Of a stretch of 64,000 nt of DNA, positions 30,001-33,000 are shown piece after piece. The DNA lies in NCBI RefSeq assembly GCF_044324875.1, contig NZ_CP172185.1, one strand, 5' to 3'. The DNA is from Escherichia coli. GTDB lineage: Bacteria; Pseudomonadota; Gammaproteobacteria; Enterobacterales; Enterobacteriaceae. The position numbers are program-made. Within the stretch, counting starts at the first letter, position 1, and each line of letters opens with the position of its first letter.

Positions 30001-33000
30001 TTGATGTCAGTGCTGCTGAGAAGACTGGGATGGTGAATGTGCAGCGGCTGGAGTTGATAAGAGGATAAGTGTTCCAGTAAATTCCTTACCTGTGAAATTC
30101 AGTCCGAAAGGTGAGTGTATAATCTTCTTATCCACTCACCGAGTTAAATATTTTTGCAATAAGAAATATCCCACTTCCGCCATCACTGAATGTTCTGCAA
30201 AACGACAGATACGAGTTCTCTCCTGAAACAGCCCTGCGTCCTATAAATATGCTTACGTGTGGCAATACATCATGATTATTAATAGATGCAATGAATCATT
30301 AGGTAGCAATTGATAGGTCAAAACATATAGGATAATTCTTGTGTGATCTGTATTTTGTGTAGCCTGGAAATTAGTAAAATTCCTGGAGATAATCAGAGAG
30401 GGAATTTCAAATAGTATAATAATTTCCCAAGAAACTATTCGTCGATTTTAGGAAAAGTCTGCTCAGGTATATCTACCGAGGGATAATGCTGGCTGTAACG
30501 CTGGTTAAAATAGATACACAAAATAATCAAGATGTATATTTTAATCGACGAAAATAATTACTTCCGGGATTATTGATGCGACTTAAATAACACCATTTAA
30601 ATGTGATATAAATCACAAATATGGCTGTGAAGAGGGTGCTGTAGATATAAATAAGAAGTACATGAGTGAATTTTAAATAGGGGAATAGTTTCTCGCTAAA
30701 CAATTTGTTGGTAATCAATCACATGCGTTCTGGTTTGAGGCAGATTGCAGGTGTTGTTACGCATAAAATTCATAGGTGGTATTATAATCAAGTAGTTAAC
30801 AGTAATGGTAAAAAATAATTTCTTGCGAAATTAGCAGCCCATTTTGAATAAGTGTGTTCCGGAGTAATCCAGAGCGCATGCTGCTTTACGTCTTTTTCAA
30901 GCCATGTTGGTTAAGCAAAAAGAGGTAGAAATAATTTCCTGAGAAATTAACTCAACATTCTGAAATGGCCAGTTTTCTGAAATTACCAGAAGACCGAATA
31001 CATTCATGCCTGAAGAATGGATTAGAAGAAACGAGACGGAAATAGATCTATTTATCCCTGCGGAAATAATTTCTGATGAAATTGTTTTCGGCTATTAAAA
31101 AGGTCAAACCGGCTGAGTGAATTTTATCCAGTTACAAACAAGTATTACCTCCAGTGTATTGGTAGCTGTTAAGCCAGGGGCGGTAGCATACCTGAAGAGA
31201 ATAGGATCACATCACCAAATGGCAAGAAGTGGATTTGAAGTCCAGAAAGTCACCGTAGAGGCATTATTTCTACGAGAAATACGAACACGCTTTGGTAAGT
31301 TCCGTCTGGGATATCTGTGGGCGATTCTCGAACCCTCTGCGCATTTGCTGATACTGTTGGGCATTTTTGGTTACATTATGCACCGCACGATGCCAGACAT
31401 CTCATTCCCGGTGTTTTTACTTAATGGCCTGATTCCCTTTTTTATCTTTAGCAGTATCAGCAATCGTTCTGTAGGTGCTATTGAAGCGAATCAGGGGCTG
31501 TTTAATTATCGACCAGTAAAACCCATCGATACGATCATTGCACGCGCACTGCTTGAGACACTGATTTACGTTGCTGTTTATATTCTGCTTATGCTCATTG
31601 TCTGGATGGCAGGCGAATATTTCGAGATAACAAATTTTTTACAACTTGTGGCTACCTGGAGCCTGCTGATCATTCTTTCATGTGGCGTCGGCTTAATATT
31701 CATGGTCGTTGGTAAAACTTTCCCCGAAATGCAAAAGGTTCTGCCGATACTGCTTAAGCCGCTGTATTTCATCTCCTGCATCATGTTCCCTCTACACTCG
31801 ATTCCAAAGCAATACTGGTCATATCTACTCTGGAACCCATTAGTGCATGTCGTGGAGTTAAGCCGCGAGGCAGTTATGCCTGGCTATATCAGCGAAGGCG
31901 TGAGTCTGAACTACCTGGCAATGTTCACTCTGGTCACCCTGTTCATCGGTCTGGCGTTATACCGAACGCGTGAAGAGGCAATGCTGACATCATGATTAAG
32001 ATTGAGAATTTGACGAAGTCATATCGCACGCCAACGGGGCGACACTATGTGTTTAAGGATTTAAACCTCGAAATTCCTTCAGGAAAAAGTGTTGCCTTTA
32101 TTGGTCGTAATGGTGCGGGTAAATCAACGTTACTGAGAATGATTGGCGGCATTGACCGCCCCGACAGTGGAAAGATCATCACCAATAAAACGATATCATG
32201 GCCAGTCGGCCTTGCAGGTGGATTTCAGGGAAGTTTAACCGGACGCGAAAACGTAAAATTTGTTGCGCGGTTATACGCGAAGCAAGAAGAGCTGAAAGAG
32301 AAAATTGAGTTTGTCGAAGAATTTGCCGAACTCGGTAAGTACTTCGATATGCCGATTAAAACTTACTCATCTGGTATGCGATCGCGTTTAGGCTTTGGTT
32401 TAAGCATGGCATTTAAGTTTGATTATTATATCGTCGATGAAGTAACCGCAGTCGGTGATGCCAGGTTTAAAGAAAAATGCGCTCAATTGTTTAAAGAAAG
32501 GCATAAAGAATCTAGTTTTTTAATGGTTTCACATAGTTTGAATTCATTGAAAGAGTTTTGTGATGTGGCGATTGTGTTTAAAGACGATAATGCGGTTGGT
32601 TTTTATGAGGATGTTCAGGAGGGAATAGAAGAGTATTATAGGATATATGCCTGAATAGCCTGTTTGAATAATAATCCAGCCTGTGAATGTTAACACTAAA
32701 TGATTCATGTTACATGATTAAAAATCATAGCGATAATATTTTTTAAATTTCTTGGTTTGTGTGCTGAATATTAGATTTCATTACACTATCAACCGTATGA
32801 AAAAATTACTTTTCAAGAAAGTATTTATCAAGAAAGATATAAAATCTAACTTTCCAATTTATCTCAATAGGAAAATATAAATGAATTTTTTATTCTTTTT
32901 AGAGCCTTCTATAGAGTTGAATAATCCTCTCTTCAGATATGCTACTTTAAGAAACTCTCTTCTTCCTCAAATTAAAACATTAAGAAGAATGGGGCATGAT

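Follow-up and report, generated by a model that had tools for sequence, protein, structure and literature searches.

A natural 3' allele in the JUMPstart/ops element of an Escherichia coli group 2 capsule (kps) cluster that very probably leaves RfaH loading in place

The 39-nt element that precedes kpsM in the stretch of Escherichia coli DNA analyzed here (64,000 nucleotides, hereafter the window) is, with high confidence, the standard JUMPstart/ops element of the E. coli group 2 kps cluster, and the GCATA with which its ops sequence ends is a natural allele that does not block RfaH loading. The basis of this assignment in the present work is sequence identity, family membership, allele frequencies and genomic context, with RfaH occupancy and the roles of individual bases taken from the literature. 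The element at 31152-31190 is a natural kps allele that is already known, common and validated by experiment, and it is judged ordinary since its 3' end is a common allele and the identical sequence is strongly RfaH-bound in strain CFT073. Control of virulence in extraintestinal pathogenic E. coli is known to act at this point, the RfaH loading site for the capsule biosynthesis genes, and the element has little significance beyond correct annotation. The element and its parts are as follows:

31152..31190, plus strand: JUMPstart element, 39 nt, CAGTGTATTGGTAGCTGTTAAGCCAGGGGCGGTAGCATA, a match to the Rfam RF01707 covariance model
31159..31177, plus strand: predicted upstream JUMPstart hairpin, with arms TTGGT (31159-31163) and GCCAG (31173-31177) and loop AGCTGTTAA
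31179..31190, plus strand: ops 12-mer GGCGGTAGCATA, with the core GGCGGTAG and T11 intact and A for the canonical G at positions 10 and 12

Membership in the JUMPstart family follows from a cmscan search in which RF01707 aligns over its full length (model positions 1-38 of 38) to exactly 31152-31190 (+) with an E-value of 1.9e-9 and a score of 53.6 bits, above the curated gathering score of 35 that defines the family. As scored by the model, the 39-nt match is far beyond chance, and a chance match as a reading of 31152-31190 is ruled out by that E-value; the GGCGGTAG 8-mer alone is non-significant, with 2 matches in the window vs. 1.05 expected. The window JUMPstart is identical to the O-antigen JUMPstart of an E. 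coli genome (L012) at 36 of 39 positions. The hairpin predicted at 31159-31177 is the Rfam consensus structure, as given by the structure line of the cmscan alignment, and includes the first GGTAGC direct repeat.

The sequence-only reading had placed a JUMPstart/ops element at this site before kpsMT on the correct strand, which the full-length match confirms, and had observed that the 3' end of ops departs from the reference sequence. That reference was itself right, as Zuber et al. 2018 (PMC5995543) used GGCGGTAGCGTG as their 'ops12' oligo, and the departure is real: the window ops differs from the canonical one at two positions, 10 (G>A) and 12 (G>A). The exact core is found at 31179-31186 on the kpsM (non-template) strand and T11 is present at 31189, and position 12, the +1 G of the consensus pause, is an A (31190). 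G12 has been described as common to the RfaH targets of K-12 (Zuber 2018, PMC5995543), and membership doesn't demand it. We do not regard G12 as defining for ops, since natural A12 sites (kpsM and c1882 in CFT073) are RfaH-bound and 36 of the 120 JUMPstart elements listed in the cross-species scan below are without it. The invariant parts of ops are the core GGCGGTAG and T11, and because RfaH-bound natural ops vary at positions 10 and 12, the 12-nt canonical ops (ending in GCGTG) is unsuited as a strict template.

The locus is an E. coli group 2 capsule (kps) cluster, with kpsMT (region 3), an AT-rich region 2 and convergent kpsFEDUCS (region 1) recognized from ORF layout, Pfam domains and GC content. 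The features around the element are:

30375..31218, plus strand: long AT-rich 5' leader of the region 3 transcript, with an approximate start placed by homology
31219..31995, plus strand: kpsM, ABC-2 permease (Pfam ABC2_membrane, E 3e-15), the first gene after ops
31992..32654, plus strand: kpsT, ABC ATPase (Pfam ABC_tran, E 3e-17), from the ORF list
32881..37641, plus strand: serotype-specific region 2, with ORFs 32881-36294 (1137 aa) and 36484-37641 (385 aa)

The type II secretion genes upstream of the leader end at 30068 (the end of gspM), and an AT-rich intergenic leader of ~1.15 kb lies between them and kpsM. The element is on the coding strand in this 5' leader of a polysaccharide operon, with ops ending 28 nt upstream of the kpsM ATG at 31219 and its first G at -40. 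These distances agree with the 'ops 28 bp upstream of kpsM' of the Aldawood and Roberts review, where PR3 is placed 741 bp upstream of kpsM (PMC8960920), and with the '-40' that Hustmyer et al. 2022 (PMC9765446) tabulate for the kpsM ops of CFT073. By coordinate mapping through alignment, the predicted transcription-unit start of CFT073 (Hustmyer Data set S2A) falls at window position 30375, and that published for K5 PR3, 741 bp upstream of kpsM (PMC8960920), would map near 30478. Consensus scans for promoters and terminators, covering the leader and the DNA from kpsM through region 2, gave matches at or below shuffle expectation, so neither kind of signal is claimed from them.

In RefSeq, homologs of the window kpsM carry the annotation ABC transporter permease, with a length of 777 nt. 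Region 2 has a GC content of 25-34% vs. 42-55% in its flanks, and carries Pfam HAD and TPR domains. It consists of two ORFs only, the one at 32881-36294 (+) encoding a protein of 1137 aa with a central HAD-phosphatase domain and with similarity, at E-values of ~2e-17 to 3e-17, to Bcs3 (8a0c), the multi-enzyme capsule polymerase of Haemophilus influenzae b, and to a ribofuranosyl transferase (7shg), and the one at 36484-37641 (+) encoding a TPR protein of 385 aa. This content suggests a phosphate-containing, teichoic acid-like capsule polymer. Six convergent minus-strand ORFs follow region 2, and are named kpsS, C, U, D, E and F by ORF size and order only. Elsewhere in the window, the C0719 sRNA (RF00117) has a full-length Rfam match at 11126-11347 (-) with 294.5 bits.

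A second match to the core, at 38430-38441 (+), reads GGCGGTAGCGAG; it is without T11 and was rejected as a further ops. The site falls within kpsS, a minus-strand ORF, on the strand opposite to that gene, which would be copied by transcripts that read through from region 3/2, and the equivalent site in CFT073 (c3691) has been catalogued without an RfaH role of its own (Hustmyer et al. 2022, PMC9765446).

The roles of the ops bases have been probed by substitution. RfaH recognition is carried by bases 3-8 and is abolished by G4C, G5A, A7T and G8C (Zuber et al. 2018, PMC5995543), and T11 is required for the pause (PMC5995543). G12C abolishes the U11 pause in vitro, yet RfaH recruitment is not abrogated (PMC5995543). 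In the lux reporter, stimulation by RfaH was ~40-fold for the wild type, 20.0 for G12C, 18.6 for G10C, 9.3 for C9G, 4.9 for G8C and 4.8 for T11G (PMC5995543 source data), and output relative to wild type was ~0.25 for G12C and 0.52 for G10C (PMC5995543), where the published substitutions at positions 10 and 12 are G>C and the changes in the window are G>A. In the 2024 cryo-EM work, RfaH grips the G5-T6 loop, beta W183 is the stacking partner of G10 and T11, and G12 occupies the G-specific CRE pocket (PMC11001881). The RfaH-contact bases 3-8 are intact in the window, and the changed positions, 10 and 12, would affect pause geometry and not RfaH contact. A full-text literature search for the ops 12-mers returned only cloning primers and unrelated papers, and no functional data.

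Occupancy of the identical sequence by RfaH comes from the CFT073 ChIP-seq of Hustmyer et al. 2022 (PMC9765446, Data set S2), in which the ops of c3698 (kpsM) is listed as GGCGGTAGCATA and is RfaH-bound both in the wild type and in the hns stpA double mutant. The kps RfaH peak (3518505-3529799) extends from kpsM through region 2 into antisense kpsS (PMC9765446). The kps fold enrichment of 70.9 is the highest of four wild-type CFT073 loci, with 30.6 for wzx, 19.0 for rfa and 5.7 for hly (PMC9765446), although ChIP enrichment also reflects heavy kps transcription and shows function, not equal per-polymerase efficiency. Two further variant ops, that of hlyC (GGCGGTAGCATG, with A10) and that of c1882 (GGCGGTAGCGTA, with A12), are both RfaH-bound in CFT073 (PMC9765446). 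The same 12-mer within the sucA and clbB coding regions has no RfaH signal (PMC9765446), so leader context matters besides sequence. We infer that the strain of the window would behave like CFT073.

To place the window allele in the species, the leader was searched for in 5,426 complete E. coli genomes, of which 1,639 share it and 1,591 do so with at least 80% query coverage. Alleles were typed with 31-nt queries centred on the ops 3' end, for which the 28-nt exact word of megablast forces identity at positions 10 and 12:

CCAGGGGCGGTAGCATACCTGAAGAGAATAG (the window 31-mer), ops end CATA: 234 genomes
CCAAGGGCGGTAGCGTACC…ATTAG, ops end CGTA: 1,119 genomes (4 with a 1-nt deletion)
CCAGGGGCGGTAGCGTACC…ATTAG, ops end CGTA: 212 genomes
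G12 version with allele B flanks, ops end CGTG: 1 genome
G12 version with window flanks, ops end CATG: 0 genomes

Alleles were typed in 1,566 of the ~1,591 leader-bearing genomes, with ~25 left unassigned, and the allele sequences were confirmed directly in eleven fetched leaders. A12 is present in ~1,565 kps leaders vs. G12 in 1, counted as genomes matched by the allele probes, and is nearly fixed in E. coli kps leaders; this near-fixation makes A12 the working state of the kps system and not a lesion. CGTA totals ~1,331 genomes and CATA 234, with A10 a minority allele of roughly 15% in these leaders. The sole complete E. coli genome found with the canonical G12 (GGCGGTAGCGTG) in its kps leader is DETEC-P1056 (NZ_CP116169.1, 4245286-4245316), a natural 'revertant' suited to use as a comparison strain.

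The leader haplotypes are described by three linked sites, 31177 (G/A, 2 nt 5' of ops), 31188 (A/G, position 10) and 31201 (A/T, 11 nt 3'), three combinations of which make up ~98% of E. coli leaders. Recombinant alleles were sought with exact-word probes (window flanks with CGTA, window flanks with CATG), neither of which had a match in the 5,426 complete E. coli genomes. A fourth combination, AAGGG with CATA, occurs in Escherichia sp. L121 and suggests that the kps leader recombines occasionally. The 1-nt-deletion allele of JJ1887 is confined to 4 genomes; its probe mostly recovered allele B, with which it has one 28-mer in common.

Beyond E. coli, a pattern scan of one genome per species gave at least 120 JUMPstart elements. 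Among the 120 matches listed, ops ends in GCGTG in 77, GCGTA in 13, GCGTT in 7, GCATA in 6, GCATG in 5 and GCATT in 4; positions 11-12 are TG in 84, TA in 21, TT in 11 and TC in 2 of the matches listed, and T11 is found in 118 of these 120. Where a KpsM homolog lies downstream, the matches listed have CATA in two Escherichia leaders and CGTG in one Pantoea leader (KpsM 86% identical), and G12 is carried by that Pantoea kps leader and by the one E. coli genome. An enterobacterial-type JUMPstart was also seen in most of a group of non-enterobacterial genomes (Arthrobacter sp. L025, L026 and L120; Firmicutes MAGs L042, L049, L078 and L097; Chitinophaga MAG L050), and most such occurrences are most likely contamination or mis-binning, several being on short or low-coverage contigs. 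Two matches are without T11, in the Chitinophaga MAG L050 and in Komagataeibacter L027, and look like chance hits of the pattern.

With these observations it is possible to weigh what the variant 3' end might do. That the ops is defective, with readthrough into region 2 lost or made independent of RfaH, is suggested only by the two departures from the canonical 12-mer, and seems extremely improbable given that the identical CFT073 sequence is RfaH-bound in vivo with a signal that continues through region 2 (PMC9765446), that the RfaH-contact bases 3-8 and T11 are intact, and that 234 complete genomes carry the allele, among them pathogens that produce a capsule, such as CFT073. The altered RfaH recruitment or readthrough into region 2 that the sequence-only reading had raised is likewise unsupported, with binding at 70.9-fold on the identical CFT073 sequence, A12 as the kps norm and positions 10 and 12 outside the RfaH contact; the comparison with other ops elements by which that reading proposed to be judged went against it, as the variant is both common (234 genomes) and functional (CFT073). 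We also consider it very unlikely that JUMPstart acts mainly as an RNA element that works through its transcript hairpin and not through the ops in the non-template DNA. Rfam does model a cis-regulatory RNA with a 5-bp stem, and the stem is present in the window, but structural and biochemical work puts recognition on the non-template DNA hairpin at ops bases 3-8 (PMC5995543, PMC11001881).

An effect of degree is a different matter, as the A12 ops may be a weaker pause than the canonical ops. The ops could be functional but attenuated, such that TA at positions 11-12 (together with A10) weakens the pause, RfaH is loaded on a smaller share of the polymerases, and region 2 is expressed less than it would be with a canonical ops. 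The loss of the U11 pause in vitro with G12C and the reduced lux outputs of G12C and G10C (PMC5995543) argue for this, as do the placement of G12 in the CRE pocket and the stacking of G10 and T11 on beta W183 (PMC11001881) and the emphasis of Zuber 2018 (PMC5995543) on a TG common to K-12 targets. However, the kps locus with exactly GGCGGTAGCATA has the top RfaH ChIP enrichment in CFT073 (PMC9765446), A12 is nearly fixed across ~1,565 E. coli kps leaders, and TA and TT endings are common across species (21 and 11 of the 120 matches listed), so we hold attenuation to be unlikely, and would say much the same of a modest quantitative effect of A12. It is more doubtful still that A12, and with it TA where the pause-inducing TG would stand, has been selected because it tunes the strength of the pause or the contact with the CRE pocket, as opposed to being a neutral historical difference. 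If true, a selected A12 would make RfaH loading at kps dependent on context, such as a slow polymerase in the H-NS-coated 800-nt leader, or temperature.

As an ordinary, working ops, which is the reading we prefer, the element would act as follows. Transcription would start at the region 3 promoter ~740-850 nt upstream, as homology indicates, and cross the long leader, and as ops is transcribed the non-template GGCGGTAG would, according to the literature, fold into a small hairpin (C3:G8 and G4:A7 pairs, loop G5-T6). The polymerase would pause at U11, where RfaH would read the exposed loop and load (PMC5995543, PMC11001881), and RfaH would then stay on the polymerase and suppress pausing, Rho termination and H-NS/StpA roadblocks (PMC9765446). 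The RfaH-modified polymerase described in the literature would go on to transcribe kpsMT and then region 2, whose AT-richness was computed here; AT-rich DNA is the type counter-silenced by RfaH (PMC9765446). RfaH dependence of the K5 distal genes has been reported (PMC8960920), and by extension from the K5 and CFT073 literature region 2 of the window would be distal cargo that depends on the RfaH-modified polymerase.

Compared with known systems, the window element agrees with the RF01707 consensus in its full-length match above the gathering score and in the presence of the consensus stem, and differs from it in its last five bases (GCAUA, where the consensus has GCGUG) and in a one-base insertion in the loop. 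The canonical ops of waaQ/rfaQ, rfb/wzx and wza (GGCGGTAGCGTG) and of hlyC (GGCGGTAGCATG) share with it the JUMPstart framework, positions 1-9 and position 11, and the hlyC ops also has A10 like the window ops; these ops carry G12, the consensus pause +1 G, whereas the kps ops carries A12. The kpsM ops of K1-type and most other group 2 clusters (EV36, BL21(DE3)) are alike in JUMPstart, position and A12, and differ in having G10 (GGCGGTAGCGTA) where the window has A10, with linked SNPs 2 nt 5' (G/A) and 11 nt 3' (A/T). The closest likeness is to the c3698 leader of E. coli CFT073 (K2; NC_004431.1), where 114 nt around ops are identical, including GGCGGTAGCATA, and where the distance to the kpsM ATG (G1 at -40), the ~845-nt leader and the upstream gspM/yghD are held in common. 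The distal leader is only ~90% identical between the two, and region 2 differs, being a CDP-glycerol glycerophosphotransferase set in CFT073 and a Bcs3-like 1137-aa protein with a TPR protein in the window.
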